Of a stretch of 64,000 bases of DNA, positions 286 to 46,688 are shown in pieces; the stretch's first letter is position 1, and each line of letters opens with the position of its first letter. This stretch comes from an uncultured delta proteobacterium. GTDB taxonomy: Bacteria; Myxococcota_A; Polyangia; Fen-1088. The translations under genes and the position numbers were made by a program. Under the pieces are notes generated by a model. That model made no database searches and was not told the DNA's origin. It was given only the letters and a program-made list of their open reading frames with translations. The DNA is taken from NCBI GenBank assembly GCA_963758155.1, contig CAVWUP010000018.1:173026-237025 (forward strand), read 5' to 3'.

Positions 286-1365
286 CTACGCCGTCAGCTT
301 TTCCAATCGGTCGACGATCTCCGCCGCCGCCTTCGGCCGGGCCAGGCCGCGCATAGCTGCGGCCATCGCTTGGCGGCGGCCGGAATCGGCGAGCAAGTCG
401 CCCAGCACTTGCGCCAGCTGCGCGCCGGTGACAGTGCCCTGATTGAGCACAATGGCAGCGCCAGCTTGGGCAAAGCGGGCGGCGTTCTTGCTCTGGTGGT
501 CGTCGGCCGCAGTGGGCAAGGGAATCAGAACGGCGGGCCGGCCAGCAATGGCCAGCTCGGCCAGGGTCAAGGCACCGGCACGCGCCACCACCAGGCTGGC
601 GCGATGATATTCGGTTGCCATGTCGTCAATAAAGGGTCGCGCCTCAACTCGGTCGAGCACGCACAGGGCACGATAGCGTTCCTTGCATCGGTCGACATCG
701 CTGGGTCCGGTTTGGTGGACGATAACCGGCAGTGATCCGTTCTTGGTCCACAACTCGACGGCGGCCATGACCAAGTCATTGACCGCACGTGCGCCCTGGC
801 TGCCGCCCACCACCAAAATGCTAGGCGCTTGCTCGCCACTTTGTGCATCGGCCGTCAAGGTAGCCACCAACTTGCTGCGCACGGGATTGCCCATCATTTC
901 GATTTTGGCGGATGGAAAAAATCTTCGAGCTTCGTCAAAGGCCACCAGCACCAGGCGAACCAGGCGCGAAAGAATTCGATTGGTGAATCCGGGAACGCTG
1001 TTTTGTTCTTGAATCGCCGTGGGGCAACGCCAAAGCGCCGCGGCCAGCACCATGGGGCCGGAGGCGTAGCCGCCCACGCCCAGCACCACGTCAGGACGAA
1101 AGCGCCGCAAGATCGACAACGAGCGAAAGAAGGCTTTGGGCAAGCGAAACAGGCCACGCAAGATCGCAATCAGTCCCATGCGCTTGAGGCCGCTCACTTC
1201 CAGAAGTTCCAGTGGGTAGCCGGCCGCAGGCACGGCGCGGGCTTCCAATCCGCGCGAGGTTCCCACAAACAACACCTGGCCGCCGCGCCGGACAACTTCC
1301 TCCGCAACCGCCATGCCGGGGTAGAGGTGCCCGCCCGTTCCGCCTCCGGCAATCAGCAGGCGCAT
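286..1365 (-). CDS. murG: MurG, lipid II N-acetylglucosamine transferase
   Basis: 359 aa with N-terminal LIAGGGTGGHLYP G-loop and GT28 architecture. Position after ftsW in the dcw cluster. Confidence 0.9.
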   Translation of the reverse strand: MRLLIAGGGTGGHLYPGMAVAEEVVRRGGQVLFVGTSRGLEARAVPAAGYPLELLEVSGLKRMGLIAILRGLFRLPKAFFRSLSILRRFRPDVVLGVGGYASGPMVLAAALWRCPTAIQEQNSVPGFTNRILSRLVRLVLVAFDEARRFFPSAKIEMMGNPVRSKLVATLTADAQSGEQAPSILVVGGSQGARAVNDLVMAAVELWTKNGSLPVIVHQTGPSDVDRCKERYRALCVLDRVEARPFIDDMATEYHRASLVVARAGALTLAELAIAGRPAVLIPLPTAADDHQSKNAARFAQAGAAIVLNQGTVTGAQLAQVLGDLLADSGRRQAMAAAMRGLARPKAAAEIVDRLEKLTA

Positions 1366-1366
1366 G

Positions 1367-2620
1367 TCAGGTTTTCGCCTCGACCACCACTCGTACGTCA
1401 GGGGCGTCGCTGCGGCGGTTCTTCCACGCCCGCGCTCGGCTTCTGCCCAGCGACTGCCAGAACGACTGGGGCGCGGCCTCGCGCTCGGAAATGTTGGCCA
1501 ACACGCCGGCCATGAACAGGCTCATAACCAAAGACGTGCCGCCATAGCTGACAAAAGGCAGGGGCAATCCCTTGGTGGGGAGAAGGCCCAAGACCACCCC
1601 CATGTTGACCAGGGCTTGCAATCCGAACAACAGAGTCACGCCAAAGGCCAGGTAGCAGCCCAGGGCGTCGCGCGCCCGCGTGGCCGCCCGCAACCCGCGC
1701 CATACCAGCAGCGTGAACGCCAGCAAGACGGCCAGCACCCCGAGCAGGCCCAATTCCTCGCCAATGACGGCCAGGATGAAATCCGTGTGGGCCTCGGGCA
1801 GGAAGAAAAGTTTTTGGTGGCCCTGGCCAAGACCTTGGCCAAACAGGCCGCCCGAGCCCACGCTGATGAGCGATTCGTAGAGCTGGTAGCCGGTGCCGCG
1901 CCTGAATTTCCAGGGATAGAGGAAGGCAAGAATGCGTTCCCGGCGCCAGGACTCGCGGGCGATGAACAGCTGCCAGCCGATGGGCGCAGTCACCAACACC
2001 GACAACAAGATGTAGCTGGTGCGCGTGCCAGCCACGAAGAGCAGACCCAGAGCCGTGACGCCGATGATGACCGCGGTTCCGAGATCAGGCTGCTTGAGCA
2101 GCAGCACGAGAAAGATTCCCGTCATCGCCAGCGGAGGCAGGAACCCCATGCGGAACTCTTTGACCTTCTCAGCCTTGCGCGCAAGCAGCACCGCCAAGTA
2201 CAGCGCCAGGGCGAACTTGGCCAGCTCCGACGGTTGGAACGACAGCGGGCCCCAGCGGAACCAGCGCACAGCCCCGTTGATGGCGGGTCCCACCTTCAAG
2301 ACCGCGGCCAACAGGGCCATGGACAGGAATAGCAGGGGATAGGCCAGGCGGCGATAAAACGAGTAGTCGAGCCGCATGCCGACGACAAAGGCCAGCAAGC
2401 CGGCGGCACTGTAGATCGCCTCGCGCTTCAGGAAGTAGGTCCAGTCGCCGTAGGTCTTGGCCGCAAAGGCCGCGCCTGCGGAGAACACCATGACCGCGCC
2501 AAACCCGGTCAAGCCAAGTATCGTCGCCACCAGCAAACGATCGGGTCCTTGCGGCACAGGCCCACCGCCGCCCATCCGCTTGGGGCTGGCCCATCGGGAC
2601 ACGCGTTCACGCAGGCTCAT
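1367..2620 (-). CDS. ftsW: FtsW, SEDS-family cell division protein / peptidoglycan polymerase
   Basis: 417 aa polytopic membrane protein of the FtsW/RodA/SpoVE family. Located between murD and murG. Confidence 0.85.
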   Translation of the reverse strand: MSLRERVSRWASPKRMGGGGPVPQGPDRLLVATILGLTGFGAVMVFSAGAAFAAKTYGDWTYFLKREAIYSAAGLLAFVVGMRLDYSFYRRLAYPLLFLSMALLAAVLKVGPAINGAVRWFRWGPLSFQPSELAKFALALYLAVLLARKAEKVKEFRMGFLPPLAMTGIFLVLLLKQPDLGTAVIIGVTALGLLFVAGTRTSYILLSVLVTAPIGWQLFIARESWRRERILAFLYPWKFRRGTGYQLYESLISVGSGGLFGQGLGQGHQKLFFLPEAHTDFILAVIGEELGLLGVLAVLLAFTLLVWRGLRAATRARDALGCYLAFGVTLLFGLQALVNMGVVLGLLPTKGLPLPFVSYGGTSLVMSLFMAGVLANISEREAAPQSFWQSLGRSRARAWKNRRSDAPDVRVVVEAKT

Positions 2621-4026
2621 CGTGAATCCTCCTGCAGGCCCCTGCGCCCCCCGTGTTTTTGGGCGATGAGGTTCTTGACTGCGAACCGAAATACTTCGGC
2701 GCGATGTTGGTAGTTGCGAAACATGTCGAAGCTGGCGCAGGCAGGAGACAGCAGCACGGCGTCCCCGCTCCGGGCCATGGTCGCGGCTTGCGCCACGGCT
2801 GCTTCCATGCTGGCCGCGATCTCGACTGGCACGACCGGCGCCAGGGCGTCGCGCAGCTTGGGGGCGGCCTCGCCGATCAGCACGGCGGCGCGCCCGGTTT
2901 GCTTCATCACCTGGGCCAGTGGCTCATAAGAGCCGCCCTTGTCGCGGCCGCCGGCAATCAGGACCACGGGATGCGGAAAGCGATCGAGCGCCGCCACCAC
3001 CGCGCCCACGTTGGTGCCTTTGGAATCGTCGTAGAAGAAGACGCCGTCCAGCTCGCCCACCAGCTCCATCCGGTGCGCCAGTGGCCGGAAGGTCACCAGG
3101 GCATGACGGGCTTCGGCGGGCAGGGCGCCGGCCAAACGTCCGGCAACCAACGCTGCCAGCGAGTTTTCCAGGTTGTGTCGGCCGATCAATCCCGGCAGAC
3201 GGGCGGGGTAGTATTCCATCGGTCCACCCGGAAGGCGCACGAGCAGGGCATCGCCTTCGATCCAGCCGCCCACGGCCAGCGCCCGCCGGGTCGAGATGAG
3301 CACACACTGGCTGCGAATTCGCTTGGCCGCGGCTTCGACCAGTGGATCATCGATGTTGAGGACGGCGAAGTCCGCCGGGGTTTGCGCGGCGAAGATGCGG
3401 CCCTTGGCGGCCGCATAGGCATCCATGGTGGGGTGGCGATCCAGGTGGTCAGGCGTGATGTTGAGCAGAACCGCCACCTGCGGGCGGAACGACACGACGG
3501 TTTCAAGCTGGAAACTCGATACCTCAAGCACACACACGCCGCCCTGCTGGGCTGCTGGCGTGCCCACCGCCTCGGCAAGAGGCACACCCAGATTGCCGCC
3601 CACGAAGGTGGGCCGGCCGTTGGCAGCCAGAATGGCCCCGCACAAGGTGGTGGTGGTCGATTTGCCGTTGGTTCCCGTGATGGCGACGATGGGCGCGTCC
3701 ACGAACCATGACGCCAGCTCCAGCTCGCCGGTGATCGTCGCGCCTCGTTGGCGTGCGGCCTCCACCTCGGGCAGCGCCGGCACGCCTGGTGACAACACGA
3801 TGAGGTCAGCCGCCGCGAATGTCTCGCTCTGATGTCCGCCCAGCTCCTGTTTGATTGTGGGCGGCAGTTGCGCCAGCGCCGCGGTCAGCACATCGGCCGG
3901 TTGCTTGTCAGTCACCGTGACCTGGGCGCCACGGGCCGCACACAGGCGGGCCGCGGCCACTCCCGAGCGTCCCAGTCCGACGACGAGAACCTTCTTGCCA
4001 AGTAGGGTGGGCTGATGGAGCTGCAT
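2617..4026 (-). CDS. murD: MurD, UDP-N-acetylmuramoyl-L-alanine--D-glutamate ligase
   Basis: Mur ligase with MQLHQPTLLGKKVLVVGLGRSG Rossmann N-terminus and GTNGKSTTTT P-loop. The ORF-track 628-aa version carries a spurious N-terminal extension that overlaps mraY. The true ATG at 4024-4026 overlaps the mraY stop (ATGA). Confidence 0.85.
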   Translation of the reverse strand: MQLHQPTLLGKKVLVVGLGRSGVAAARLCAARGAQVTVTDKQPADVLTAALAQLPPTIKQELGGHQSETFAAADLIVLSPGVPALPEVEAARQRGATITGELELASWFVDAPIVAITGTNGKSTTTTLCGAILAANGRPTFVGGNLGVPLAEAVGTPAAQQGGVCVLEVSSFQLETVVSFRPQVAVLLNITPDHLDRHPTMDAYAAAKGRIFAAQTPADFAVLNIDDPLVEAAAKRIRSQCVLISTRRALAVGGWIEGDALLVRLPGGPMEYYPARLPGLIGRHNLENSLAALVAGRLAGALPAEARHALVTFRPLAHRMELVGELDGVFFYDDSKGTNVGAVVAALDRFPHPVVLIAGGRDKGGSYEPLAQVMKQTGRAAVLIGEAAPKLRDALAPVVPVEIAASMEAAVAQAATMARSGDAVLLSPACASFDMFRNYQHRAEVFRFAVKNLIAQKHGGRRGLQEDSR

Positions 4027-5141
4027 CAACGAACCTTCAAGGTGAGCAGCAGGCCGAGAACAGCGCAGGAGAAGGAAACGATCCAGAAGCGCACCACGAT
4101 GCGCGACTCGGGCCAGCCCATTTTTTCGAAATGGTGGTGAATGGGCGCCATCAAGAAGATGCGCCGCTTGGTGACCTTGTAGTAGCCAACCTGGATCACG
4201 TCGGAGAGCACCTCGACCACGAAGACACCGGCGATGATGGGGAGTGACAGCTCGGTTTTGGTCGCCAGCGCCACGAAGCCGATGGCCCCACCCAGGGCGA
4301 GCGCGCCCACGTCGCCCATGAAGACCTGCGCCGGGTGCGTATTGTACCAAAGGAATCCGATGCTGGCGCCCACGATGGCCCCGCAAAAGATAGTCAGCTC
4401 GCCCGCGCCACGCACATGGGCCATGCCCAGGTAGTGGGCGATGTTGAAGCCCGCCAGGGTCTGGCCGGCAGCGTAGCTCAACAACATGAAAGTGAAGGCG
4501 CACGCGATGACCGGGCCAATGGCCAGGCCATCGAGCCCGTCAGTCAAGTTCACCGCGTTGGAGGTGCCCATCACCACCGCTATGAGTCCGAACAGGGCAT
4601 AGACCAGCGTCGGAATCACCAAGCGGTAGCGCTCGAAATTGAGCAGCGGAACCGCCAGCCGCAGCCGCACCGACGGGTCCAGGGCATCGCCGTAGAACAA
4701 CCAACCCACGGCCACGGCCCCCACCGCGAACTGCACCAGCAGCTTGAGCTTGCCCGGAACCCCGCGCTTGTTCCGCCTGGTGATCTTCAGGTAGTCGTCG
4801 ACGAAGCCCAGCGCGCCGTAGCCCACGGTCACGAACAGCGCCGGCCACACCAGCGGGCTGGTGAGATCGCACCACAGCACGGTTCCCGTGACCAGCGCCA
4901 TGATGATGAGGGCACCGCCCATGGTCGGCGTGCCTTGCTTGACCGCGTGGGTGGTGGGGCCGTCGTCGCGGATGACCTCGCCCAGTTGTCGCGCGCGGGC
5001 CCTGCGGATGAACCAGGGCGCGAGCGCGAAGGTGATGAGCAGCGAGGTCAGGGTCGCCAACATGGTCCGCGTCGAGACGTAGCGGAATACGTTGAAGAAC
5101 CCGACGTTGCTGCGCAGTTGTACAAAGAGATGAAACAGCAT
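4026..5141 (-). CDS. mraY: MraY, phospho-N-acetylmuramoyl-pentapeptide transferase
   Basis: 371 aa polytopic membrane protein with MraY-family motifs and dcw cluster position. Confidence 0.9.
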   Translation of the reverse strand: MLFHLFVQLRSNVGFFNVFRYVSTRTMLATLTSLLITFALAPWFIRRARARQLGEVIRDDGPTTHAVKQGTPTMGGALIIMALVTGTVLWCDLTSPLVWPALFVTVGYGALGFVDDYLKITRRNKRGVPGKLKLLVQFAVGAVAVGWLFYGDALDPSVRLRLAVPLLNFERYRLVIPTLVYALFGLIAVVMGTSNAVNLTDGLDGLAIGPVIACAFTFMLLSYAAGQTLAGFNIAHYLGMAHVRGAGELTIFCGAIVGASIGFLWYNTHPAQVFMGDVGALALGGAIGFVALATKTELSLPIIAGVFVVEVLSDVIQVGYYKVTKRRIFLMAPIHHHFEKMGWPESRIVVRFWIVSFSCAVLGLLLTLKVR

Positions 5142-5144
5142 GAA

Positions 5145-6569
5145 CTACAACTTCTTTCGCAAGGCCTCTACCGCGCGCTCGAGACGCACGCCACGCGAAG
5201 CTTTCACCAAGATCCAGTCCCCTGGCTCAGACCAAGTCGACACCGCTTGTGCGGCGGCTTCTGGATCGTCGAAGGCCAGGGCGCGGCTGGCGGACAAGCC
5301 TGCGGCCATGGCGCCTTGGGCGATCTGCGCGCCCAGGGATCCCACCACCGCCAGGCCAGCCACGCCGATGGTGACCGCCTCTTGGCCGAGGGCCCGGTGC
5401 AAGTCCGCGGCCGCGTCGCCCAGTTCCAGCATGTCGCCCAGGATGGCAAAAGCGCGACCGAAGCGGCCCGCCGATCCCACCAGCGTGCGCAAGGCAGCGG
5501 TCATGGACGTCGGATTGGCGTTGTAGCAATCGTCGAGTACCATGCGCCCACCCAGGCAGAACACATGAGACCGGTGCGCTGGCAAGGTCGCGTGTTGCAG
5601 GGCCGCGGCTCCCGGCAAAAGGGGAACCCCGAGCGCGTTCGACACGGCCAGAGCCGCCGCCGCGTTGCGCGCATTGTGCTCACCCGCCAGGGGCAGGCGC
5701 AGCACCACCGGTTCGCACCCGACCGACAAACGAATGCGCGAACCCGCCGCGCCGTCGGGAATGAACTCCATGATCCTCACAAAGGCACGCGCGGAGGCGA
5801 CGCCGGCAAAGCCAAAGCGCCGCTTGTGCGCCTCGGGTATCGCGGCGACCTCAGGCTCCAGGCGAGGCTCGTCGACGGGCAACACGGCAATTCCGTCGGG
5901 GCCAAGGCCGCCAAAGATTTCGCCCTTGGCGCGCGCCACGGCCTCGAGCGAGCCCAGCCGCCCCAGGTGCGCGCCCGCCACGTTGGTCACCACCGCGACA
6001 TGGGGCTGGGCGATGCCAGCCAGGTACGCGATCTCGCCGGGCGCGCGCATGGCCATCTCCAGCACCCAGAACTTCTCCTTGCCGGTGGCTTCCAGCACGG
6101 TGAGGGGCAGTCCCACGTCGGTGTTGAGGTTGCCCTGGGTGCGCAGCACCTGGCCCGCAGGCGAGAGCGCGGCTGCGATCAGTTCCTTGGTCGTGGTCTT
6201 GCCGTTGGAGCCAGTGACACCCACAACGCGGCCGCGGTACTGTTTGCGCACGGCTGCGGCCAAGTCCCCCATCGCCTTGCGCGGGTCAGCCACTGCGATA
6301 ACTGCGATCGCGCTGCAGCCGGTCGGCCGGCCGCGATGCGCAGCCACCACCACCGCCGCTGCCCCGGCCTGGGCCGCGGCTGCGCAGAAGTCGAAACCGT
6401 CGACTCGCTCACCGGGAAGCGCGAAGAAGAGCCGACCGGCCTTCACCTCGCGGCTGTCGCTGGCAGCGCCGGCGAATCGGAGCGTACCCAGCGCGGCTGG
6501 CGCGTTGAGAGCCGTTCCACCCATGGCCTTGCACGCAAACGCCAGGGTCCGCTTCGCTGGTCCTGTCAC
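5145..6569 (-). CDS. murF: MurF, UDP-MurNAc-tripeptide--D-alanyl-D-alanine ligase
   Basis: 474 aa Mur ligase with GVTGSNGKTTTKE P-loop. Position between murE and mraY. Confidence 0.85.
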   Translation of the reverse strand: MTGPAKRTLAFACKAMGGTALNAPAALGTLRFAGAASDSREVKAGRLFFALPGERVDGFDFCAAAAQAGAAAVVVAAHRGRPTGCSAIAVIAVADPRKAMGDLAAAVRKQYRGRVVGVTGSNGKTTTKELIAAALSPAGQVLRTQGNLNTDVGLPLTVLEATGKEKFWVLEMAMRAPGEIAYLAGIAQPHVAVVTNVAGAHLGRLGSLEAVARAKGEIFGGLGPDGIAVLPVDEPRLEPEVAAIPEAHKRRFGFAGVASARAFVRIMEFIPDGAAGSRIRLSVGCEPVVLRLPLAGEHNARNAAAALAVSNALGVPLLPGAAALQHATLPAHRSHVFCLGGRMVLDDCYNANPTSMTAALRTLVGSAGRFGRAFAILGDMLELGDAAADLHRALGQEAVTIGVAGLAVVGSLGAQIAQGAMAAGLSASRALAFDDPEAAAQAVSTWSEPGDWILVKASRGVRLERAVEALRKKL

Positions 6570-6588
6570 GCGACACCTCGGCCCCGGA

Positions 6589-6705
6589 TTTCACCACAGA
6601 GAGCACAGAGAGCACGGAGACGGATGGGAAGGCGAGAAGGGTTCGGACTCGGATCCGGAACCCTTTCCTTCCGGCCTCTGTGGCCTTTGTGCCCTCTGTG
6701 GTGAA
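6589..6705. repeat. REP/MITE-like inverted-repeat element, copy 1, in the murE-murF spacer
   Basis: TTCACCACAGAGAGCACAGAG ... CTCTGTGGCCTTTGTGCCCTCTGTGGTGAA terminal inverted repeats with an internal GGGTTCGGA...TCCGGAACCC sub-palindrome. Same family as the copies at 15538, 41189 and 45496. Confidence 0.8.
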
Positions 6706-6750
6706 GCTCCGGATCGCGTAGTTGGCCGTCGAATCCAGACAAGATCGCGG

Positions 6751-8292
6751 CTAGCACCTGTGACCTCCGGGAGCCGTGCGGCCTTGGCGGGTGGCGAAGG
6801 CGGCCGCGGCCACCTCGCGATCGTCGAAGTGAATCTTCTGTGTGCCGAGGATCTGGTAATCCTCGTGGCCCTTGCCCGCTATGAGCAGCGTGTCCCCTGG
6901 CCGCGCGAGCGCCACGGCCAGCTCGATGGCCGCGCGGCGGTCGGGCTCGACGTGGAAGCCCGACAAGCCCTGGCACAGCTCGGAGGCGGCCCGGCGGACG
7001 ATGCCCGTCTTCTCGACCCCGGCCACAATCATGTCAAGGATAGCGTGCGGGTCTTCGGTGCGCGGGTTGTCCGAAGTGATGACCACCACATCGGCGCGCT
7101 CGGCAGCGGCCTGGCCCATGCGCGGTCGCTTGCCCTTGTCGCGATCGCCGCCACACCCGAAGACCACCAACACGCGCCCCGTGCTGAGCGGCCGCAACAC
7201 GTCGAGGGCCCGTTCCAGTGCGTCGGGCGTGTGGGCGTAGTCGACCAGGCACAGCACGCCCGCTGCGTTCGTCACACGTTGCAAGCGGCCCGGAACGCCG
7301 CCCACCCTGCTGATGCCAGCGGAAATCGCGTTGCGATCAATGCCGTGGGCTAGCGCCATGCCGGCGGCCAGCAGGATGTTGGATAGGTTGAACTCGCCCA
7401 CCAGCGGTGACGTGATAGCCAGCGGTCCCGAGGGCGTCGCGAGTTGCAGGGAGGTTCCATCGGCCCCCAGCCGGCGATCGAGCACCGCGACGTCGGCACC
7501 GCGCGGCTGTCGCGTAAGGGTCAGCACCGGGCCGCGCACTTCGCGGCGCATGACGAGGCCGTCTTGGTCGTCGGCAAAAAGCACGGCCACGCCTTTGTCG
7601 GGGGACAACAACTCGCGGAAAAGAATCGCCTTGGCGGCCCGGTAGCGGTCCATTGTGGCGTGATAGTCGAGGTGGTCCTGGGTGATGTTGGACAGGCCCG
7701 CCACGCGAAAGCTGCAGCCATGCAGCCGCCCCTGATCCAGGGCGATGGACGAAGCCTCCAGCACCACGTCCGAGCAGCCCGCGACTTTCATCTGAGAGAA
7801 GAGCGAATGCAATTGCAGAGCGCCCGGCGTGGTGAGCGGCGCTTCCTGCATATGGCCGGCAAAACGGTAGCCCACGGTCCCGATGACACCAGGGCGGCGA
7901 CCAGCTGCGGCCAGAATGGCCTCGATCAAGTAGGTGGTCGTGGTTTTGCCGTTGGTGCCGGTCACGGCCGTGAGCGTGAGAGCCTGCGCCGCCTGGTACC
8001 GATTGGCGGCGACCAGCCCGAGCGCCAGTCGCGCACTGGGCACCAAGACCAGCGCGGCTGCGCCGTCCGGTGAAGCGTCGGCTTCCTCGGTGAGGATGGC
8101 CGCTGCTCCCTTGGCCTTGGCGTCGTCAATGAAACGCCGGCCATCGAGTTTGGTTCCGGGAATCGCAACGAAGAGATCTCCGGGCTGCACCAGGCGAGAG
8201 TCGTCACGCACCTCGTGGATCAGGACCTGCCCGTCGCCCGCGGCGATGCGGGCGTCTGATATTCCCTGCAATAGATGCGAAAGCCGCAGCAA
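6751..8292 (-). CDS. murE: MurE, UDP-MurNAc-L-Ala-D-Glu--2,6-diaminopimelate ligase
   Basis: 513 aa Mur ligase with TGTNGKTTTTYL P-loop. Located between ftsI and murF. Confidence 0.85.
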   Translation of the reverse strand: MLRLSHLLQGISDARIAAGDGQVLIHEVRDDSRLVQPGDLFVAIPGTKLDGRRFIDDAKAKGAAAILTEEADASPDGAAALVLVPSARLALGLVAANRYQAAQALTLTAVTGTNGKTTTTYLIEAILAAAGRRPGVIGTVGYRFAGHMQEAPLTTPGALQLHSLFSQMKVAGCSDVVLEASSIALDQGRLHGCSFRVAGLSNITQDHLDYHATMDRYRAAKAILFRELLSPDKGVAVLFADDQDGLVMRREVRGPVLTLTRQPRGADVAVLDRRLGADGTSLQLATPSGPLAITSPLVGEFNLSNILLAAGMALAHGIDRNAISAGISRVGGVPGRLQRVTNAAGVLCLVDYAHTPDALERALDVLRPLSTGRVLVVFGCGGDRDKGKRPRMGQAAAERADVVVITSDNPRTEDPHAILDMIVAGVEKTGIVRRAASELCQGLSGFHVEPDRRAAIELAVALARPGDTLLIAGKGHEDYQILGTQKIHFDDREVAAAAFATRQGRTAPGGHRC

Positions 8293-8295
8293 GGC

Positions 8296-10380
8296 TCATC
8301 CTCCGTTTCGGAACGAGACCCGACAAAGCGTGCCACGCATCCCGGGTCCGGGCGCCGGCGTCTGTGTGGCAGCGACTCCGCTACCCTCGGGCACAAGCTC
8401 GATCCCCGCGCGCCGCGCGGCTCGCACGGCCTGGCCCAAAGTCATGCCGACAAAATCTGGAATGGCGGCATCAAGCTTGCGCTCAGTCGCAGGCTGGCCA
8501 TCGACTGCAGCAGCGGTCTGGTCCTCGCCTGAGGCGATCTCGGGCTCGTCCTCTTCTTGAGCCTCGCCAACAGATGCCACGGGCTCCTCGACGCCCAGAC
8601 CCTCCACCTCGTTGGCATCGGCTTCGCTGTGCCGGGTCGTCTCGACCTTCGCCTCGGCCTTTTTGGCTGTCCGCGCGGCACTGGTACCCACCGAACTCGA
8701 TGGCGGCACGCCCAGGTAGCGCAGGGTTGCTTCGGCAATTTCCTTGAACACCGGAGCCGCGACCACACCGCCATAGTGCACGCCGTGTGGCTCGTCGACC
8801 ATGACCGCGATCACCACGCGCGGATTGTCCGCTGGAACGATTCCGACGAAGGCGGCCAGGTACTTGCTGGGATCGTAGCGACCGTTGCTGACTTTCTGGG
8901 CAGTGCCGGTTTTGCCGGCCACGGGATAGCCGGGGATCGCGGCCAGCTTGGCCGTCCCATCTTCGGTCACGCCCTGCATGATGGTCAGCATGGTGCGCGC
9001 GGTACTTTCGGACAGCACGCGTTCTTCTGGCCGTGCGTCCGCCGGCAGCGGTACCGGCTCGCTGCGGCCGTCAGCGCTTGCCAAGCGAGCCGCCAGCTTG
9101 GGCGGGTGATACAGGCCGCCCGACGCGATGGCCGCATACGCGGTCGCCATCTGCAACGGCGTGACCGTCAGGCCCTGGCCAAAGGCCTGCGTGGCCAGCT
9201 CGATCTCGCCCCAGCGCGAAACCGGCCGGACGGTCCCTCGTCGTTCACCGGGCAAACCCACGCCGGTGGGTCGACCGAACCCCAGTCGGTCGATCATGCG
9301 CGCCAGCGTTTCCTTGCCGATGCGGCGGGCGATCTTCACGGTGCCGATGTTGCTCGAATACTTGAAGACCTCGGCCGCGGTGAGCACGCCCTTGGGGTGG
9401 TCGTCACGGATGTGGTACTTGCCTACCTGCATTTGCCCCATCTGGCAGTCGAAGCGGTCTTCTGGTCTCAGCTTGCCCACGTCGAAGGCAGCAGCAAAGG
9501 TCACCGTCTTCATGATGGACCCGGGCTCGTAGGCATCGGCGATGGCCCGGTTGCGCGCGCCCCGCTCGGCGGCGTCCGAGGGGCTGTTGGGGTTGTAGCC
9601 AGGCACGCTGGCCATGGCCAGGATCTCGCCGGTGCGCGGATCGATCATCACCGACGTGGCCGCCTTGGCGTTGTGCTCTTTGACAGCCTTTTCAAGCGCC
9701 CGTTCGGTCAGGTAGGTCAGGTACTTGTCCAGGGTCAGCACCAGATCCTTGCCCGCGCTGGCCGACGAATCGACTGTACCCTCCATGAGCAGATCCCGGC
9801 CGAGTCGGTCGTGGAAGCCGGTGACTTCCATCCCGCTGCCGTGCAAGGCTTCGTCGTAGGCCAGCTCCACGCCTTCCAGGCCGTGGCCTTCCAGACCCGC
9901 GTGGCCGATCACGGTGGAAGCCAGCTCGCCGTTGGGATACACCCGCCGGGGCTCCTTGCGCACGCTCACCCCTGGCAAGCCCAATCCCAGGGCCGCCGCG
10001 CTCTCTTGCGGCGACACCCGCCGTTTCACCCAGGCGAAGTACTGCGCTTTCTTGGATGCGAGCGTCTTGTCGAGCTCACGAGGGTCGAGGTCCAGCGCCT
10101 TGGCCAGGCGAGGAGTTGCGTCGGGCCCCAGCTGGCGCGGGTTGCAGAACACGGAATCCAGATCCGTCGTGGAAGCCAGCTCGGCCCCGCGTCGGTCCAG
10201 GATGCGGCCGCGACGGGGTGCGATCTCGACCTCACGCAGGTAGTTGCTCTCGGCCCATTCCCGTAGCTGCCCAGCTTCGCGAACTTGCAGTTGCACAGCG
10301 CGCCGGCCCACCGAGAAAGCGAGCCCGAGCAACACTAGGCCGCAAAGGACGATGCGCACGCGTGTCCACCGGGTCGGCAC
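8296..10380 (-). CDS. ftsI: FtsI-type class B penicillin-binding protein (transpeptidase) with C-terminal PASTA domain
   Basis: 694 aa with N-terminal TM anchor, a transpeptidase domain carrying a KTGTAQ KTG-box, an acidic linker, and a C-terminal block DFVGMTLGQAVRAARRAGIELVPEGSG typical of PASTA domains. The start overlaps the ftsL stop. Confidence 0.8.
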   Translation of the reverse strand: MPTRWTRVRIVLCGLVLLGLAFSVGRRAVQLQVREAGQLREWAESNYLREVEIAPRRGRILDRRGAELASTTDLDSVFCNPRQLGPDATPRLAKALDLDPRELDKTLASKKAQYFAWVKRRVSPQESAAALGLGLPGVSVRKEPRRVYPNGELASTVIGHAGLEGHGLEGVELAYDEALHGSGMEVTGFHDRLGRDLLMEGTVDSSASAGKDLVLTLDKYLTYLTERALEKAVKEHNAKAATSVMIDPRTGEILAMASVPGYNPNSPSDAAERGARNRAIADAYEPGSIMKTVTFAAAFDVGKLRPEDRFDCQMGQMQVGKYHIRDDHPKGVLTAAEVFKYSSNIGTVKIARRIGKETLARMIDRLGFGRPTGVGLPGERRGTVRPVSRWGEIELATQAFGQGLTVTPLQMATAYAAIASGGLYHPPKLAARLASADGRSEPVPLPADARPEERVLSESTARTMLTIMQGVTEDGTAKLAAIPGYPVAGKTGTAQKVSNGRYDPSKYLAAFVGIVPADNPRVVIAVMVDEPHGVHYGGVVAAPVFKEIAEATLRYLGVPPSSSVGTSAARTAKKAEAKVETTRHSEADANEVEGLGVEEPVASVGEAQEEDEPEIASGEDQTAAAVDGQPATERKLDAAIPDFVGMTLGQAVRAARRAGIELVPEGSGVAATQTPAPGPGMRGTLCRVSFRNGG

Positions 10381-10751
10381 TAGCGCGTTCCTTTCCCAGG
10401 CGCGGCGGATGCAGCACCGATCCGTCGGATATTTTCAGGGGCGGCTGGCTGCATGAGCAGCTGGTCCCGCGCGATGGCGATCACCCGGCTCGGATCCTTG
10501 AGCATCCCGATCTCGATTTCCAGGTGACGCCGCTGCTCGGCGAGTTCGCGGTGAACACGTTCCGCCTCGCCGAGCGCCAGCGCGACTTCTAGACGTTTGG
10601 CATGCACGGCGACATGGCCGAGGGCGCCAAGAGTGAGGCCCAGAGCCACGAAGGCTATCACAGCCAGGCTTGCGTGCCGTTTGCGTCGATCGGGCTGAAG
10701 CAATGCAGGTGCCGTTTGGGGTCGGGCGATGGGAGAGCGTGGCGAATTCAT
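10380..10751 (-). CDS. ftsL: FtsL-like cell division protein
   Basis: 123 aa single-TM coiled-coil protein between rsmH and ftsI. The start overlaps the rsmH stop. Confidence 0.65.
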   Translation of the reverse strand: MNSPRSPIARPQTAPALLQPDRRKRHASLAVIAFVALGLTLGALGHVAVHAKRLEVALALGEAERVHRELAEQRRHLEIEIGMLKDPSRVIAIARDQLLMQPAAPENIRRIGAASAAPGKGTR

Positions 10752-11692
10752 GAAGGCAGCCTTTCGGCGGCGCGCAGTTTCGCGGAACGGGCGCGTGGAT
10801 TGCGCGCGAGCTCGCCCTCCGACGCCGTGATCACGTGCTTCGTGAGAATCCGAAAGCGGGGAGCGTCGGGCGCGTCAGTGTCCCCTGATGCCAGGGCTCG
10901 GAACCTGCGCTTGACCATGCGGTCTTCCAGCGAGTGGAAGGCGATGACCACCAATCGGCCGCCGGGTCGTAGACAGCCAGGTGCCGCCTGCAGGAAGCGA
11001 TCCAACTCACCCAACTCATCGTTGACAGCAATTCGCAGGGCCTGAAAAACGCGCGTGGCTGGATCCTTGGTCGCCTCTCGCCGGGGAACCGAGCGGGCCA
11101 CCAAGCTGGAAAGGGCCGAGGTGGTGTCGAGGCCGCCACTTTCGCGCGCGCGGGCTATCTCGCGGGCGATCCTGCGCGCGAAGCGTTCTTCTCCGAGGTC
11201 ATGCAGGAGGCGCGCCAGCTCTTCCTCGTCCACGCGTTGTAGTAGGTCAGCCGCTGTCTCCGTTTGCGACCGGTCCATGCGCATGTCCAGCGGGCCGGAT
11301 CTGCGAAACGAAAAACCCCGGTCAGGCTGATCGAGCTGCACCGAGGAGACGCCAAGATCCGCGATACATCCGTCAAGCGGAAGAGCGTCGGCCTGTTCCA
11401 GCACGGAGCGAATTTGCGAAAAGGGAGCGTGGACCAGTCGGACCCGGTCCTCATGAGATGCTAGGTTGTCTTTCGCCAGCGCGAGCACTTCGGCGTCCCG
11501 GTCGATGCCGACAACTCGACCGTGGGGAGCAGACCGGTCGAGGATCGCGCGCATGTGCCCACCAAGCCCAACCGTGGCGTCGCAGTAGCAGCCCGAGTCC
11601 CTCGGACACAGGAAGCTCATCGCCTCTTCAACGAGGACTGGAAGGTGCGGAGCGTCAGCGGAGCTTTGGATCATTGGCACCGGTGGACTCAT
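10748..11692 (-). CDS. rsmH: RsmH (MraW), 16S rRNA m4C1402 methyltransferase
   Basis: 314 aa with YCDATVGLGGH SAM-binding motif. It is the first gene of the dcw cluster here. Confidence 0.85.
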   Translation of the reverse strand: MSPPVPMIQSSADAPHLPVLVEEAMSFLCPRDSGCYCDATVGLGGHMRAILDRSAPHGRVVGIDRDAEVLALAKDNLASHEDRVRLVHAPFSQIRSVLEQADALPLDGCIADLGVSSVQLDQPDRGFSFRRSGPLDMRMDRSQTETAADLLQRVDEEELARLLHDLGEERFARRIAREIARARESGGLDTTSALSSLVARSVPRREATKDPATRVFQALRIAVNDELGELDRFLQAAPGCLRPGGRLVVIAFHSLEDRMVKRRFRALASGDTDAPDAPRFRILTKHVITASEGELARNPRARSAKLRAAERLPS

Positions 11693-13678: not shown

Positions 13679-13741
13679 ATGTTGTTTGCGACCACCCTGC
13701 TTCTCTCGGGACTGCTGCTTAGCAGCGCGGGAGAGGCCTGA
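13679..13741 (+). CDS. Putative Leu-rich leader peptide (MLFATTLLLSGLLLSSAGEA) for leuA attenuation
   Basis: 20-codon ORF with 7 Leu codons (TTG, CTG, CTT, CTC, CTG, CTG, CTT), located 115 bp upstream of leuA and followed by a terminator-like hairpin. Confidence 0.45.
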   Translation: MLFATTLLLSGLLLSSAGEA

Positions 13742-13766
13742 GGTAAGGCGCAGAACGACGAACCTC

Positions 13767-13801
13767 GAAACCCTCTCCCGCGGAAGCCGGAGGGGTTTTT
13801 C
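13767..13801 (+). terminator. Intrinsic-terminator-like hairpin plus U-tract (candidate leuA attenuator)
   Basis: GAAACCCTCTCCCGCGGAAGCCGGAGGGGTTTTTC forms a GC-rich stem with flanking A/U complementarity and a TTTTT run. It lies between the leader ORF and the leuA start. Confidence 0.5.
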
Positions 13802-13856
13802 GTATCTGCGAAAGGCCGTGGCCATCTCCGGCGGAAGCGGGGCCTGGAGACTGACT

Positions 13857-15533
13857 ATGACATTCGACGCTCGCAAATATCCTTCGGCGCCATCGCTGCG
13901 TCTGCCTGACCGCACCTGGCCTTCCCGCACACTGGACCACGCGCCCACCTGGTGCAGCGTGGATCTGCGCGACGGAAATCAGGCCCTGGCCGAGCCCATG
14001 GGCACGGAGCGCAAGCTGCGATTCTTTCAAACGCTGGTGCGCGTGGGCTTCAAGGAAATCGAAATGGGCTTTCCCGCGGCCTCGCAGACGGAATTCGACT
14101 TCGTGCGTGCGCTGATTGACCAGAACCACATTCCCCCTGACGTGACCATCCAGGTGTTGACCCAGGCGCGCGCGCATCTGATTGCACGCACCTTCCAGGC
14201 CCTGCAGGGTGTCCGTCGCGCCATCGTGCATGTGTACAACTCGACTTCGACGGTGCAACGGCGGGTGGTGTTCGGAATGGACCAAGCGGCCGTAAAGGAG
14301 ATTGCGGTGCGTGGCGTGCGACAGGCGCGGCAAGAAGCAGCCAAGCTGAAGGGAAGCGAGATTGTCTTGGAATACTCGCCTGAAAGTTTCACTGGCACTG
14401 AATTGGAATTTGCAGCGCAAGTGTGCGACGCCGTGGCCGAGGAATGGCGGCCCACCCGCGACCAGAAGATGATCGTGAACTTGCCCGCCACAGTCGAGAT
14501 GTCCACGCCCAACGTGTACGCCGACCAGATTGAATGGATGCACCGGCATTTGGCGCAGCGGGATTGCCTGATCATCAGCGTGCACACGCACAATGACCGC
14601 GGTTGCGCCATAGCCGCGGCCGAGCTGGCCATGCTGGCCGGTGCCGAGCGCGTGGAAGGCACCTTGTTTGGCAACGGCGAGCGCACTGGCAACGCCGACG
14701 TGGTGGCGCTGGCCATGAACCTGTTCAGTCAAGGCATCGATCCGAAACTGGACTTGTCGGACTTGCCGGCGTTGGTCGACGTTTTCCAGGCGTGCAATCA
14801 ATTGCCCGTTCCGCCGCGCCATCCCTACGCGGGTGAGCTGGTGTTCACTGCCTTTTCCGGCTCGCACCAGGACGCCATTCGCAAGGGATTGGCCGCAATG
14901 GACAAGACCGGCGCGACGACATGGGAAGTGCCGTACTTGCCGATTGATCCAGCGGACGTGGGGCGCCAATACGAGCCCTTGATTCGCATCAACAGTCAAT
15001 CCGGCAAGGGCGGCGTAGCCTACGTGCTGGAGCAGAGCCACGGGTATCGCGCGCCCAAAGGCATGGCAATGGAGTTCAGCCAGGTCGTCCAAAGATTGGC
15101 CGATGCAACTGGCAAGGAGCTGAGCGCGGAGGCCATTCTGCAGGCATTCGAACGCGAGTATCTGTCCGGTGGCCGCTTCGAGGTCGTGGACTTCACAGCG
15201 GAACACCCTCGCCAGGGCGCGTGCGTGGTGCGCGCGCGCCTGACTGACGGACAAAGGCCGCTGAGTGTAGAAGGCCAGGGCACCGGTCCCATCGACGGCT
15301 TTGTGCATGGCTTGGCCAGCGCGTTGGGTGTGGACGTCCATTTGGTCGACTACAGCGAGCACGCGCTGGGCGATGGCGCTGACGCCGAAGCCGTGGCCTA
15401 CGTTGGTCTGCGCGGCCGCGACGGAAAGATACGCTTCGGCGCCGGCCGCGACCGGGACATCGTCAAGGCGTCGCTGTCCGCAGCGTGCAAGGCGCTGGAA
15501 AGGGAACTGAGCGCGAAGGCGACGGAGAGATAG
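13857..15533 (+). CDS. leuA: 2-isopropylmalate synthase, long (actinobacterial LeuA) form
   Basis: The N-terminus RTWPSRTLDHAPTWCSVDLRDGNQAL...FKEIEMGFPAASQTEFDFVR is collinear with long-form LeuA of the Mycobacterium type. ATG at 13857 has a GGAGA Shine-Dalgarno. The ORF-track start at 13686 is a read-through extension. Confidence 0.85.
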   Translation: MTFDARKYPSAPSLRLPDRTWPSRTLDHAPTWCSVDLRDGNQALAEPMGTERKLRFFQTLVRVGFKEIEMGFPAASQTEFDFVRALIDQNHIPPDVTIQVLTQARAHLIARTFQALQGVRRAIVHVYNSTSTVQRRVVFGMDQAAVKEIAVRGVRQARQEAAKLKGSEIVLEYSPESFTGTELEFAAQVCDAVAEEWRPTRDQKMIVNLPATVEMSTPNVYADQIEWMHRHLAQRDCLIISVHTHNDRGCAIAAAELAMLAGAERVEGTLFGNGERTGNADVVALAMNLFSQGIDPKLDLSDLPALVDVFQACNQLPVPPRHPYAGELVFTAFSGSHQDAIRKGLAAMDKTGATTWEVPYLPIDPADVGRQYEPLIRINSQSGKGGVAYVLEQSHGYRAPKGMAMEFSQVVQRLADATGKELSAEAILQAFEREYLSGGRFEVVDFTAEHPRQGACVVRARLTDGQRPLSVEGQGTGPIDGFVHGLASALGVDVHLVDYSEHALGDGADAEAVAYVGLRGRDGKIRFGAGRDRDIVKASLSAACKALERELSAKATER

Positions 15534-39167: not shown

Positions 39168-39287
39168 GAGGCTCTTTCAGGAAAGCGGGAAATCTACACG
39201 AAGAGCACGGCTCTCGCCCGCAGATGCTGGCACACGCCCAACTTGTGCGAGCCCGCAGGCCGGGTGACAATGCGTCCCGGGGGAAAA

Positions 39288-41171
39288 ATGACCAAGTTGC
39301 TTGCAGCGTTTCTGACGATTGGACTGACCGCTTCTTCTTGCGCCAGTGGGCCTCCGGTTGCTGCCGACGATCTCAAACTCAAACGCGTGGTCATCTACCG
39401 CAACGGCGTGGCGTATTTTGAAAGGGAAGGCCGGGTGGAAGGCGAGCGCGTGCGCTTCAAGGTGCGTGGCGACGAAGTGGGGGATTTTCTGGCCAGCTTC
39501 GCCGTGATCGAGAAGGGGGGCAGCTCAGTGCGCGCGGCCTCGTTCCCGCTCAAACGCGAGGAGCCCGTGCCGCCGCCTGATGCAGCCGGGAACAAGCCGG
39601 CCGATGCCAAGCGCCGCATGGAAACCGTGGTCATGGAAATGGATGGCCGCGAGCATGAGCTGGCCGTGGGCTACATCGCCGAGGCGCCGGTGTGGCGGCC
39701 CTCGTACCGGCTGGTCTTGGGCAGCGGCCCTGCGCACCTGCAACTTTGGGGCATCGTGCAGAATCTGTCAGGCGAGGATTGGACCGACACCAAACTCACC
39801 TTGGTGGCGGATGCGCCGCTGGCGCTGACCGCCGGGTTGGAGCGGCCGGTGATTCCGGGTCGGCCGGTGCTGACTGACGACGGCGGCGCAATCGCCGTGT
39901 TGCCACAGGCGGAAACCACCCTGGCCGAAGAACCGACTCCGCCACCGCCGTCCGAGGCGCCAGCCCCGGCACCCGCAAAGTCCATGATGGCCCCGGCGTC
40001 GAGGTCTTTGGAGAAGAAGGAAGCGCACAAAGGCGGCGTACTGGCACGGCGTATGCTGGGTGCCTTGCGGGATGAGGACGGCACTTCTGCTCCTCAGGGC
40101 GCGATGAATTTCGGCCAGGCGGCCTCGCGTCCTTCGCGCGCCCGCAACCTGGCCGCGCTGGCCGCCGTTGCAGTCTCGGGCGGCGCCACTCGCTACGAGT
40201 TGCCCAACCCGGTCACCGTTCCTGACAACCACGCGACCATGCTCCTTCTGGCAGACAAGGAAGTGCCAGGCGAAGCCACCTTCCTGTTCGTGCCCGATGG
40301 CGGTGTGCCTGATTCGGCCGCGCATCCTTTCAGGGTCGCGCGCTTCACCAACAAGACGGGCGGTCTGCTCGAGCGCGGGCCGCTCGCCTTTTTCGGTGAG
40401 GGCGGATTTCTCGGGCAGGGCGTGATCGATCCGCTGCCCGACGGCGCCAGCGCCACTGTGCCTTTTGGCCTGGAGCGCGGTCTGGCGGTCGAGCGCAGTA
40501 CAGAATACGTACTAGAAGGCGCGCGGCTCTTTCAAGTCGAGGCGGGAAACCTGGTCATCGAGCGGCAGGTGGGACCGCGTACGCGCTACAAACTCAAGAG
40601 TGGCGTGGACCAAGCGCACACCCTGTGGCTCAAGCATCCGCGACAGAACGGAATGAAATTCATCCAGCCGCCCAAGGGCACCGAGGACAACGTAGGATCA
40701 GGCAGCGCCTTGGTTCCCGTCGAAATCGCAGGCCACGCCAGCAAGGAGCTTGTGCTCGACGAGCGCCAGGGCAGCCGGCAAGCCGAGGAATGGCTGAACA
40801 ATCTGGCTGACGACGCGGTCAAGGAGTACCTGGCTGCTCCCGACGGCAAGGGCGAGGCAGCCGCGCAGCTTCGGGCCGCCTGGACCATCCGCACCGACTG
40901 GAAGCGACTGGCCGACGAGGCCGAACGCCTGCAATCGGAACAGAACGATCTGCAGACATCCACCGAGGAGACGCGCGAGAACTTGCGTGCCATCGAAAAG
41001 AACAAAGCCGCCGAGGATCTGCGCCGCACGCTGACCGCCCGGCTCACCAAGGCATCGGCTCGCCTCGACGAAGTGACCAAGCGACTCATCCAGGTTCACA
41101 TGCAGATCAAAGAGCTGGAATTGCGCTTCCGCGAGGCGGTGAAGCTGGTGCGTATCCCAGCCCGCGCGTAG
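39288..41171 (+). CDS. Secreted hypothetical protein, possibly DUF4140/DUF4139-like, with C-terminal coiled coil
   Basis: Signal peptide MTKLLAAFLTIGLTASSCASG (an alternative ATG lies at 39270). Conserved-looking blocks VVIYRNGVAYFEREG and TKLTLVADAPLALTAG. A C-terminal 100 aa that is charged and helical. Confidence 0.35.
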   Translation: MTKLLAAFLTIGLTASSCASGPPVAADDLKLKRVVIYRNGVAYFEREGRVEGERVRFKVRGDEVGDFLASFAVIEKGGSSVRAASFPLKREEPVPPPDAAGNKPADAKRRMETVVMEMDGREHELAVGYIAEAPVWRPSYRLVLGSGPAHLQLWGIVQNLSGEDWTDTKLTLVADAPLALTAGLERPVIPGRPVLTDDGGAIAVLPQAETTLAEEPTPPPPSEAPAPAPAKSMMAPASRSLEKKEAHKGGVLARRMLGALRDEDGTSAPQGAMNFGQAASRPSRARNLAALAAVAVSGGATRYELPNPVTVPDNHATMLLLADKEVPGEATFLFVPDGGVPDSAAHPFRVARFTNKTGGLLERGPLAFFGEGGFLGQGVIDPLPDGASATVPFGLERGLAVERSTEYVLEGARLFQVEAGNLVIERQVGPRTRYKLKSGVDQAHTLWLKHPRQNGMKFIQPPKGTEDNVGSGSALVPVEIAGHASKELVLDERQGSRQAEEWLNNLADDAVKEYLAAPDGKGEAAAQLRAAWTIRTDWKRLADEAERLQSEQNDLQTSTEETRENLRAIEKNKAAEDLRRTLTARLTKASARLDEVTKRLIQVHMQIKELELRFREAVKLVRIPARA

Positions 41172-41188: not shown

Positions 41189-41299
41189 TTCACCACAGAG
41201 AGCACAGAGCCCACGGAGCCGGACCGGAAAGGGAAGGGTTGGGTTCTGTCCGGTCCGAACCCTTCTTCCTTTCCGATCTCTGTGCTCTCTGTGGTGAAA
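41189..41299. repeat. REP/MITE-like element copy 3
   Basis: TTCACCACAGAGAGCACAGAGCCCACGGAGCC ... GATCTCTGTGCTCTCTGTGGTGAA. The arms are near-perfect reverse complements. Confidence 0.8.
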
Positions 41300-41361
41300 C
41301 ATCTCGCCAATTCGGATCAGGGTTCCCATCTGCAATGACTTCTGCGCTATTCTGTTGATCC

Positions 41362-44288: not shown

Positions 44289-45491
<1,203 letters not shown>

Positions 45492-45495
45492 CTGT

Positions 45496-45619
45496 TTCAC
45501 CACAGAGAGCACAGAGAACACAGAGGTCGGAAAGGAAGGAGGGGGGGTCGGCCTGCGAAGAATCCAACCCTTCCCTCTCCGCTCCGGCTCTGTGACCTCT
45601 GTGTCCTCTGTGGTGAAAT
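45496..45619. repeat. REP/MITE-like element copy 4 (between convergent genes)
   Basis: TTCACCACAGAGAGCACAGAGAACACAGAGGTCGG ... CCGGCTCTGTGACCTCTGTGTCCTCTGTGGTGAA. Confidence 0.8.
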
Positions 45620-45626
45620 AGGCTAG

Positions 45627-46454
45627 CTACGTCCCCGGCTTTTGCGGCAGATAGCCGGGCGGCGGCGCGAGCAGGAAGGCGTCAGCGGGAAAGGTCGGGT
45701 TGAGGATACGGTCGCGGACCTTGATCTCCACGCCGTCGTCGAAATCGTGCCCCGGTTCGGCGAAACGGATGAGTGCAGGGAACGACTGCCCGTCGCTGCG
45801 CTGCAGATCCTCGTAGGACACACGCCAGCGGGCACGCGCGAACGGCGACTGACCCGCGACCGCGACCACCTCCCAGGCAGCCACCGCAGGCGCCGGCCGA
45901 CGCAGGGTGATCCACAACTGCACGCCATCGGGTGTCAGCAGGTGCAACACGTCTGCCCCTCGGTCCCACCCGACGTCCAGTGCCTGGCTTCCCTCGGGGA
46001 AAAACACGTCGCCCAGCAGGATGGCGGCCACGGCCTGGGCTGGCAGGGGAATACGGATCAATGAAGCCACATCACCCGGGGTGGCCTGGCCCTGGCGAAA
46101 GATCTTTTTCTGGTGGTCGACGAAGACGAAGGCACCGTCGTGGACCGCCAGCGCAGCCACCGTGCCCTGCAACGACACCTCGGCCTCGAAGCGCAGATTG
46201 CCTCCGCGCTCGACCAACATCTGCACGGTTCCGCGCACGCGCTCGCCGCCCAACCAACTGGTGGTGCGCGTTTCCAGATTCACACTGCGCACAGCCGTCT
46301 GGCGCGCGCGCAGGGCGGCCAGCAGTTCATCGGCGGTAGGAACGGGATACTTTCGTTGCGCGGGGGTCGTCGACGCACACGAAATGATCAGCAAGCCGAC
46401 CACGAAAAGCAGCGAACGGCCGAGAAATCCGCAGCCTGCCCGAAGATTGCCCAC
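45627..46454 (-). CDS. Lipoprotein, LolA/LolB-fold (DUF4292-like) hypothetical
   Basis: Probable GTG start giving MGNLRAGCGFLGRSLLFVVGLLIISC (lipobox IISC). The ORF-track start at 46685 adds a 77-aa Arg-rich extension that is unlikely to be real. Lies 3 nt downstream of the TPR gene. Confidence 0.4.
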   Translation of the reverse strand: MGNLRAGCGFLGRSLLFVVGLLIISCASTTPAQRKYPVPTADELLAALRARQTAVRSVNLETRTTSWLGGERVRGTVQMLVERGGNLRFEAEVSLQGTVAALAVHDGAFVFVDHQKKIFRQGQATPGDVASLIRIPLPAQAVAAILLGDVFFPEGSQALDVGWDRGADVLHLLTPDGVQLWITLRRPAPAVAAWEVVAVAGQSPFARARWRVSYEDLQRSDGQSFPALIRFAEPGHDFDDGVEIKVRDRILNPTFPADAFLLAPPPGYLPQKPGT

Positions 46455-46688
46455 CAGCGCAGGGCGGCCAGCGTGCCCCGTGAGCGGTAGCGTGGGCGGT
46501 AGCGACCAGCGTGGCCCGGCTTGCGTGGGCGACTTGCGTGAGCGCAATCCGCGAAATGCGCTTCGCCTTTCCGCAAGACGCACACGAACTCGCTCACCCT
46601 CACGCTCTCGCCCACGCGGCCCGCGAACCGGCCCTTCGGGCGGCCCGCAGTTCCCCGACGGAGCGTACATATGCACGATCTGCATCCG

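Follow-up and report, generated by a model that had tools for sequence, protein, structure and literature searches.

The imperfect palindrome that lies between murE and murF in the dcw cluster of this uncultured delta proteobacterium (Myxococcota, Polyangia) is probably the core of a non-autonomous, MITE-like mobile hairpin, inserted once and bearing the ends of a family associated with GxxExxY nuclease genes. The palindrome belongs to a dispersed repeat family, its locus shows an insertion polymorphism with a target duplication, its termini recur across phyla, and the same termini accompany GxxExxY genes. An evolutionary account of the murE-murF locus replaces the regulatory one, and a tolerated genomic parasite is a likelier description of the dcw element than a regulator of the operon. 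As an insertion it is ordinary biology; what deserves attention is the association, across phyla, of a nuclease with a hairpin.

The window, meaning the whole 64-kb stretch of DNA that was analysed (G+C content 64.8%), contains the dcw cluster at 286-11692 on the minus strand, so the operon reads from right to left. Its genes, all on the minus strand, were named by NCBIfam models above cut-off alongside ORF calls: rsmH (10748-11692), ftsI (8296-10380), murE (6751-8292), murF (5145-6569), mraY (4026-5141), murD (2617 to ~4000, with an inferred start), ftsW (1367-2620), and murG (286-1365). The exception is ftsL (10380-10751), which scores 33.9 bits against TIGR02209, below the 42.45 cut-off. 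The GTG start of murF was placed at 6569 because relatives with an empty site overlap it with the murE stop as GTGA. The resulting murE-murF spacer, 6570-6750, is 181 nt long and is, as the sequence-only reading had stated, the sole sizeable gap in the cluster; at the other junctions examined, neighbouring genes overlap or stand 1-3 nt apart, the murD-mraY distance resting on the inferred murD start.

Inverted-repeat and folding analyses locate the core palindrome of the dcw copy (e1, 117 nt) at 6589-6705, in agreement with the ~117-bp inverted repeat first read from the sequence. Its arms (6590-6630 and 6665-6705) are 41 nt each and 76% complementary, and an inner stem reaches the short loop. 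Each arm consists of TTCACC, three 9-nt sub-repeats (CACRRAGNN), and CCGGAAGGAAAGGGTTC, after which comes the short loop. The expectation that a transcript of either strand would form a long, stable stem-loop within the polycistronic mRNA was borne out by predicted folding: when the spacer was compared with 200 shuffled sequences, the z-scores were -5.5 for the mRNA (minus) strand and -6.4 for the plus strand, and none of the 200 folded as well. A 158-nt extended repeat unit (6581-6738) is 88.6% identical by BLAST to an independent copy, L095, and overshoots the palindrome by 33 nt towards murE and by ~9 nt towards murF. The L095 copy lies at a non-orthologous site in another Myxococcota MAG; it had been considered as the orthologous murE-murF spacer, an assignment that was dropped when BLAST placed it as an independent copy at another locus. 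In the mRNA sense, the hairpin energy of the window copy is -68.9 kcal/mol (~-69) versus -80 to -87 for the fresher L095 copy; the window e1 copy is a degraded, decaying palindrome.

No conventional RNA or protein feature was recognized in the element. A search of the whole window against Rfam at gathering thresholds gave no match, and at a permissive E-value the murE-murF locus gave only sub-threshold hairpin matches to miRNA models (32 bits or less against thresholds of 60-99). The promoter and terminator scan of 6300-7000 returned no terminator-like site and nothing else. The sequence 3' of the stem on the mRNA strand is AAUCCGGGG, with no U-tract, and intrinsic termination is for that reason unlikely. 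The dcw copy has no ORF, and no protein-family match was found within it.

The origin of the spacer was evident from a comparison of the window with 16 close relatives from a metagenome scan (MurF 83-96% identical in amino acid sequence). In 13 of these 17 alleles the site is empty and murE overlaps murF (...CCCGGAGGTGTCGC-GTGA), with GGAGGT serving as the murF Shine-Dalgarno sequence 5 nt before the start, GTG as the murF start, and TGA as the murE stop. The other four (the window, L121, L122, and L126) are filled with the same ~177-nt insert. The two relatives closest by MurF identity are empty. The sequence-only reading had proposed comparing the spacer among relatives as a check on insertion, and insertion is what the empty, overlapping alleles demonstrate.

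Alignment of filled and empty alleles defines the inserted DNA as ~177 nt at 6586-6762 (minus strand), bounded by a direct duplication of 10-13 bp, (GGC)TCCCGGAGGT; this clean filled/empty comparison is available for e1 alone, at a single locus. The murE-side copy of the target (6763-6775, minus strand) reads GGCTCCCGGAGGT on the mRNA strand. The murF-side copy (6575-6585, minus strand) survives intact in L126 as (GC)TCCCGGAGGT, differs at one position in L121, and in the window has decayed to GGGGCCGAGGT. Because the duplicated target contains the murF Shine-Dalgarno sequence, which in the murF-side copy stands 5 nt upstream of the GTG start, both the ribosome binding site (RBS) and the start codon of murF are retained. 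The predicted accessibility of the murF RBS shows no consistent difference between filled and empty alleles. The murE frame continues into the insert, so its product ends in ...PGGHRC* instead of the ...PGGVA* of empty alleles. The new TAG stop (6751-6753) is supplied by 24 inserted nt beyond the repeat unit (6739-6762, minus strand; CACAGGTGCTAGCCGCGATCTTGT on the mRNA strand), a segment that recurs nowhere else and is not accounted for by the unit. It contains AGGTGCTAGCC, which includes the new stop; a near-identical AGGTGCTAACC occurs in L095 (1308-1318), ~25 nt outside that copy, on the opposite side and inverted, and may be a coincidence or else a target or end motif.

In a murF tree, filled alleles branch at three points, always beside empty sisters. 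Even so, the final ~40 nt of murE contain linked differences that they share (CGCCAAGGYCGCACGG), and the 3' segment of murE is more similar between the window and L121 (identity 0.93) than between the window and L119 (0.84), its nearest relative overall. Since the filled alleles have these linked flanking differences in common, their sequences suggest a single insertion followed by spread of the filled haplotype through recombination. Repeated precise excision was considered for the patchy filled/empty pattern and dropped, the linked differences being better fitted by allele exchange. Over 59 nt, the insert is 95% identical among filled alleles versus 69% at murF third codon positions, an excess for which constraint is a possible alternative to recent allele exchange. 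Compared with L121 and L126, the window has the palindrome interior the other way round, with the outermost nonamers and the flanks keeping their orientation; such a flip suggests intramolecular recombination between the arms. L126 also carries an extra insert of ~85 nt (2822-2905) nested in an arm of the element and made of two small G+C-rich hairpins.

That this is a repeat element, as had been claimed, was confirmed within the window itself. The motif CACAGAGRGCAC occurs 10 times where 0.94 are expected, and BLAST together with nhmmer located seven arms, constituting three full copies and one half copy. When all 64 kb were scanned for local inverted repeats (28 nt or longer), only the three full copies were found. 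Besides e1 these are e2 (41189-41300), which starts 18 nt past the stop of the ORF at 39243-41171, and e3 (45495-45620), located between a convergent ClpX-like gene (44289-45491) and the ORF at 45627-46685. The arms of e1, e3, and e2 measure 41, 34, and 30 nt, respectively. The half copy (15539 to ~15600), which starts 5 nt past the stop of the ORF at 13686-15533, has an intact left arm and core and a right arm decayed past recognition. Every copy in the window lies just past a stop codon, at distances of 5, 18, and ~4 nt, and the extended unit in the dcw cluster begins 13 nt after one.

The e3 junction has several features of its own. GCTAGCT is present at both ends of e3 (45487-45629), the left one providing the plus-strand TAG stop and the right one the minus-strand stop; both convergent genes are kept intact by the duplicated junction, as at murE/murF. 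Independent copies in L073 and L102 likewise adjoin GCTAGCT, which may represent a target preference or part of the end of that sub-family. The orthologous junction (45491) in four relatives, L150-L153, is an insertion hot spot: i) L151 has the same element plus ~75 extra nt that include a poly-G run; ii) L150 has a 22-nt remnant (CTGCGGTGAAAAG...) that resembles an excision footprint; and iii) L152 and L153 have a different palindromic repeat made of GTGAGCG/CGCTCAC units. No clean empty site for e3 was found among these four, one having the remnant, one being filled, and the rest having the other repeat. A second palindromic family of the same GTGAGCG...CGCTCAC kind is present in the window at 46470-46625. 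This repeat overlaps the called ORF 45627-46685, at its 5' end or within it, and the true start of that ORF may be downstream of the repeat.

The ends of the element extend its distribution well beyond the Myxococcota. They have the form TTCACC(ACAGAGNNC)2-4, which can also be written TTCACC(ACRRAGNNC)n. A pattern scan for TTCACCACAGAGRGCACAGAG, with one genome per species, recovered exact 21-mer ends at no fewer than 118 loci, compared with ~0.5 expected by chance from the size of the collection. These loci are in Acidobacteriota, Gemmatimonadota, Planctomycetota, Verrucomicrobiota, Chloroflexota, Myxococcota, Desulfobacterota, Chlamydiota, Lentisphaerota, and several proteobacterial classes, and they include isolates (Bacteroides hominis, B. 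gallinarum, Alcanivorax jadensis, Thioalkalivibrio sp. ALJ16, Methylobacter luteus, and Pedobacter). The same 21-mer end is seen in L067, a MAG that carries the putative archaeal label Methanocellaceae.

Conservation is confined to the termini. Element length ranges from 60 to 487 nt, and the centre from nil to ~450 nt. Across 55 complete elements, one arm of each having been preselected by the exact pattern, the heptamers are near-invariant, and no covariation between the arms was detected at the two spacer positions of each nonamer. The lack of covariation gives no support for selection on pairing; with sequence conserved rather than pairing, the arms look more like a site read by a protein than like a generic RNA stem. 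Sister families built from other purine-rich nonamers (CACGAAG, CACAAAG, CGCGGAG, CGCAAAG) share this layout and are often mutually nested. For example, sister hairpins (CGCGGAGAC, CGCAAAGGC, CACAGGGGG, CACGAAAGG) occupy the loops of CACAGAG-type elements at six loci (L003, L038, L076, L105, L020, and L065). A search of openly accessible full-text literature on the arm sequences, GxxExxY, PDDEXK_3, and IVS proteins found no description of these repeats.

A candidate for such a protein comes from the longer members of the family. ORFs within 750 nt of 127 arms were clustered by mutual BLAST and inspection, supplemented by a GxxExxY profile. The sole cross-locus cluster of plausible proteins is a ~125-aa GxxExxY protein; two of its members, when scanned, scored 146-147 bits against TIGR04256 (GxxExxY) and PF13366 (PDDEXK_3), for which the cut-offs are 35 and 22, respectively. 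BLAST clustering and inspection found no other recurrent cargo, such as four-helix-bundle/S23p or RAYT-type genes, beside the 127 arms. In elements of 444-487 nt, a single GxxExxY ORF is bracketed by both arms in Verrucomicrobiae (L062), Acidobacteriaceae (L069), Thioalkalivibrio (L098), and Lacipirellulaceae (L100), and at a fifth locus, L028, the ORF has a complete hairpin on each side. The ~450-nt versions carry one gene, which encodes a 123-aa GxxExxY/PDDEXK_3 nuclease with a Cas4-like fold. The fold and the catalytic motifs (D, ExK, QxxxY) match the core of Cas4/RecB-type nucleases. A PDB sequence search with the GxxExxY profile gave no match, and Foldseek against the PDB returned only weak, generic PD-(D/E)XK matches.

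The association also holds when approached from the protein. Among nine GxxExxY genes sampled by close protein homology, eight have related tandem-nonamer arms on both sides and the ninth has the 5' arm only; an arm is at or near the start codon in all nine, abutting the ATG in seven. Seven genes from a protein search (L143, L145, L146, L147, L154, L155, L156), drawn from Nitrosomonadales, Pirellulaceae, a tubeworm symbiont, Sedimentisphaerales, and others, have an arm abutting the ATG without exception, and six have a 3' arm. The viral-contig scan yielded two loci only, L141 and L142, and both GxxExxY genes have tandem-nonamer inverted repeats on each side. In annotated plasmid and chromid records the arm DNA is mostly without annotation; in Bacteroides finegoldii 4 nt separate an arm from a GxxExxY gene, and a Bernardetia GxxExxY gene has CACAGAG-type arms on both sides. 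The family is very large, with at least ~8,000 candidates at E ≤ 1e-10, and distant members (~40% identity or less) have other flanks, for example an 11-bp inverted repeat in Treponema and 22-bp direct repeats on a Fusobacteria plasmid. No GxxExxY gene is present in the 64-kb window.

A GxxExxY cassette was also seen in Sphingomonas parapaucimobilis (L157; NZ_CP155749.1, 482837-483265), located between fabD and fabG. Its 5' nonamer arm, of the CGCGAAG type, abuts the ATG, and its stop codon is 2 nt before the fabG start. It is the second case of this element class within a core operon.

These observations lead to a model in which the element entered the overlap of the murE stop and murF start and duplicated ~10-13 bp of target (TCCCGGAGGT). 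By this insertion murE gained a 3-codon tail and a new stop, and murF kept its Shine-Dalgarno sequence and GTG. Tolerance of the insertion in an essential operon is explained by the retained murF RBS and start and by a change to murE of a 3-codon tail only. From the arrangement of genes and arms in other genomes, the GxxExxY nuclease would act on the arms together with host repair, moving or maintaining the elements; to our knowledge, a 123-aa nuclease alone cannot carry out strand transfer. The dcw copy would then be an ORF-less derivative mobilised in trans. Its presence would give a transcript containing a hairpin of about -69 kcal/mol with no U-tract, and translation of murF would be uncoupled from that of murE. 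By analogy with known cases, the stem could be a site for RNase III, and it could also block a 3'-exonuclease. Such operon effects would be side effects rather than a conserved regulatory design.

A broader proposal is offered tentatively, and we hold it with less than even confidence: tandem-nonamer arms together with a Cas4-like GxxExxY nuclease might constitute an undescribed minimal class of mobile element, whose ORF-less hairpins colonise gene junctions and survive there by virtue of the target duplication. The colonised junctions may include murE/murF here and fabD/fabG in Sphingomonas, with the duplication regenerating an RBS, a start, or a stop.

The roles of hairpin and gene could be reversed. 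The hairpins would then be the primary mobile or amplifying units, propagated by a host or IS enzyme or by replication slippage, and the GxxExxY genes would be passengers, or else preferred neighbours for which the arms serve as signals for expression or insulation. Most copies have no ORF, the L028 gene is flanked by two complete hairpins rather than lying inside one, arm type and protein phylogeny agree only partly, and other nonamer families nest in the loops, all of which this arrangement would accommodate. It does not readily account for cassettes of many phyla in which the last nonamer abuts the ATG, for the presence of both arms at eight of nine protein-sampled genes, or for the fact that no other gene family recurs beside the arms, and we regard it as unlikely.

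The sequence-only reading had suggested, by analogy with REP/BIME elements, a stem-loop that could control mRNA stability or partial termination between murE and murF. As a selected function, kept to set murE versus murF mRNA levels by acting as a barrier, a partial terminator, or an RNase III site, this was not supported. In its favour, the mRNA strand forms a very stable hairpin whose position coincides with the boundary between two cistrons, filled alleles differ less in the insert than at synonymous sites, and the cutting by RNase III of intervening-sequence stems in 23S rRNA (PMC4990558) offers an analogy for processing. Against these points, the element is missing from 13 of the 17 alleles, including the two closest by MurF identity; there is neither a U-tract nor a terminator-like site; and the window copy is a degraded palindrome. 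Furthermore, its interior is flipped relative to L121 and L126, so that no particular RNA-strand version is conserved between orthologous copies; the arms show no covariation at variable positions across the family; and the same repeats are dispersed at unrelated loci in a selfish-looking manner. A by-product effect on the transcript is possible, whereas a selected regulator is, in our estimate, quite improbable.

Membership in the REP/BIME class itself was not supported either. A REP or REPIN element served by a RAYT (Y1) transposase, as in Escherichia coli and Pseudomonas, would be a dispersed extragenic palindrome forming a long hairpin, often just past stop codons, and so far the resemblance is real. 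However, the conserved GTAG head is absent and the arms are tandem nonamers; comparison of the ORFs with one another and with the GxxExxY profile found no other recurrent family, RAYT-like genes included, beside 127 arms; and exact 21-mers cross phyla, unlike the lineage-specific REPs. We consider this origin very improbable. A chance palindrome or local duplication, for which only the high G+C content speaks, is refuted by the shuffle z-scores, the multiple copies, and the cross-phylum matches, and can be dismissed.

A non-autonomous mobile hairpin, inserted once, is the reading that we retain for the dcw palindrome. With it comes a documented example of a mobile hairpin that landed where two essential cell-wall genes overlap by 4 nt, neither of which is harmed because the duplicated target carries the RBS of the downstream gene. 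It ties GxxExxY/PDDEXK_3 proteins to a DNA structure that is shared across phyla, and yields a first testable hypothesis, namely that the nuclease acts on the nonamer-repeat arms around its own gene. A class of intergenic hairpins that lack annotation in Acidobacteriota, Planctomycetota, Gemmatimonadota, Bacteroides, Myxococcota, and others would be accounted for as well. In genome annotations such hairpins probably give rise to spurious small ORFs (the 'HRGHRG/TEDTE' type).

Several known systems resemble the element in part. Like MITEs, including those of the Correia/NEMIS type, it is small (60-220 nt), has terminal inverted repeats, is ORF-less, and exists in many copies; insertion is intergenic with co-transcription, e1 has a target-site duplication, and longer relatives with the same ends carry a gene. 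Terminal inverted repeats, a target-site duplication (at one locus), and dispersed copies without coding capacity were all found. As for an autonomous partner, none lies in the window; in other phyla GxxExxY genes stand between the same ends, and their mobilising role is putative. The differences are that this presumed partner encodes a 123-aa PD-(D/E)XK nuclease rather than a DDE transposase, that the inverted repeats are built from tandem 9-nt units, and that the ends are conserved across phyla to the level of exact 21-mers.

REP/BIME elements and REPINs are likewise extragenic palindromes that form hairpins in operon transcripts and lie near gene ends. REP families are lineage-specific, and the REP unit is 20-40 nt with a conserved GTAG-type head. 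In contrast, the present element has no GTAG head, its ends being TTCACC plus tandem nonamers, and the gene associated with it is GxxExxY. Free-standing homing endonuclease genes and Cas4/RecB-family nucleases share the nuclease core motifs and the small, single-gene selfish cassette, but GxxExxY proteins have no Fe-S cluster domain, and their genes have no intron or intein context and stand between structured inverted repeats.

In architecture, the closest parallel is the intervening sequence (IVS) of 23S rRNA. In Coxiella burnetii this is 428 nt long and contains an S23p ORF (PMC4990558). Both systems have a ~450-nt cassette in which terminal inverted repeats form a long stem around one small ORF or, alternatively, a short ORF-less hairpin, and both are distributed sporadically and horizontally; the IVS also serves as a model for cleavage of such a stem by RNase III. 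The dcw element differs in residing between protein-coding genes rather than within rRNA, and the ORF family that accompanies it is PD-(D/E)XK rather than a four-helix bundle.
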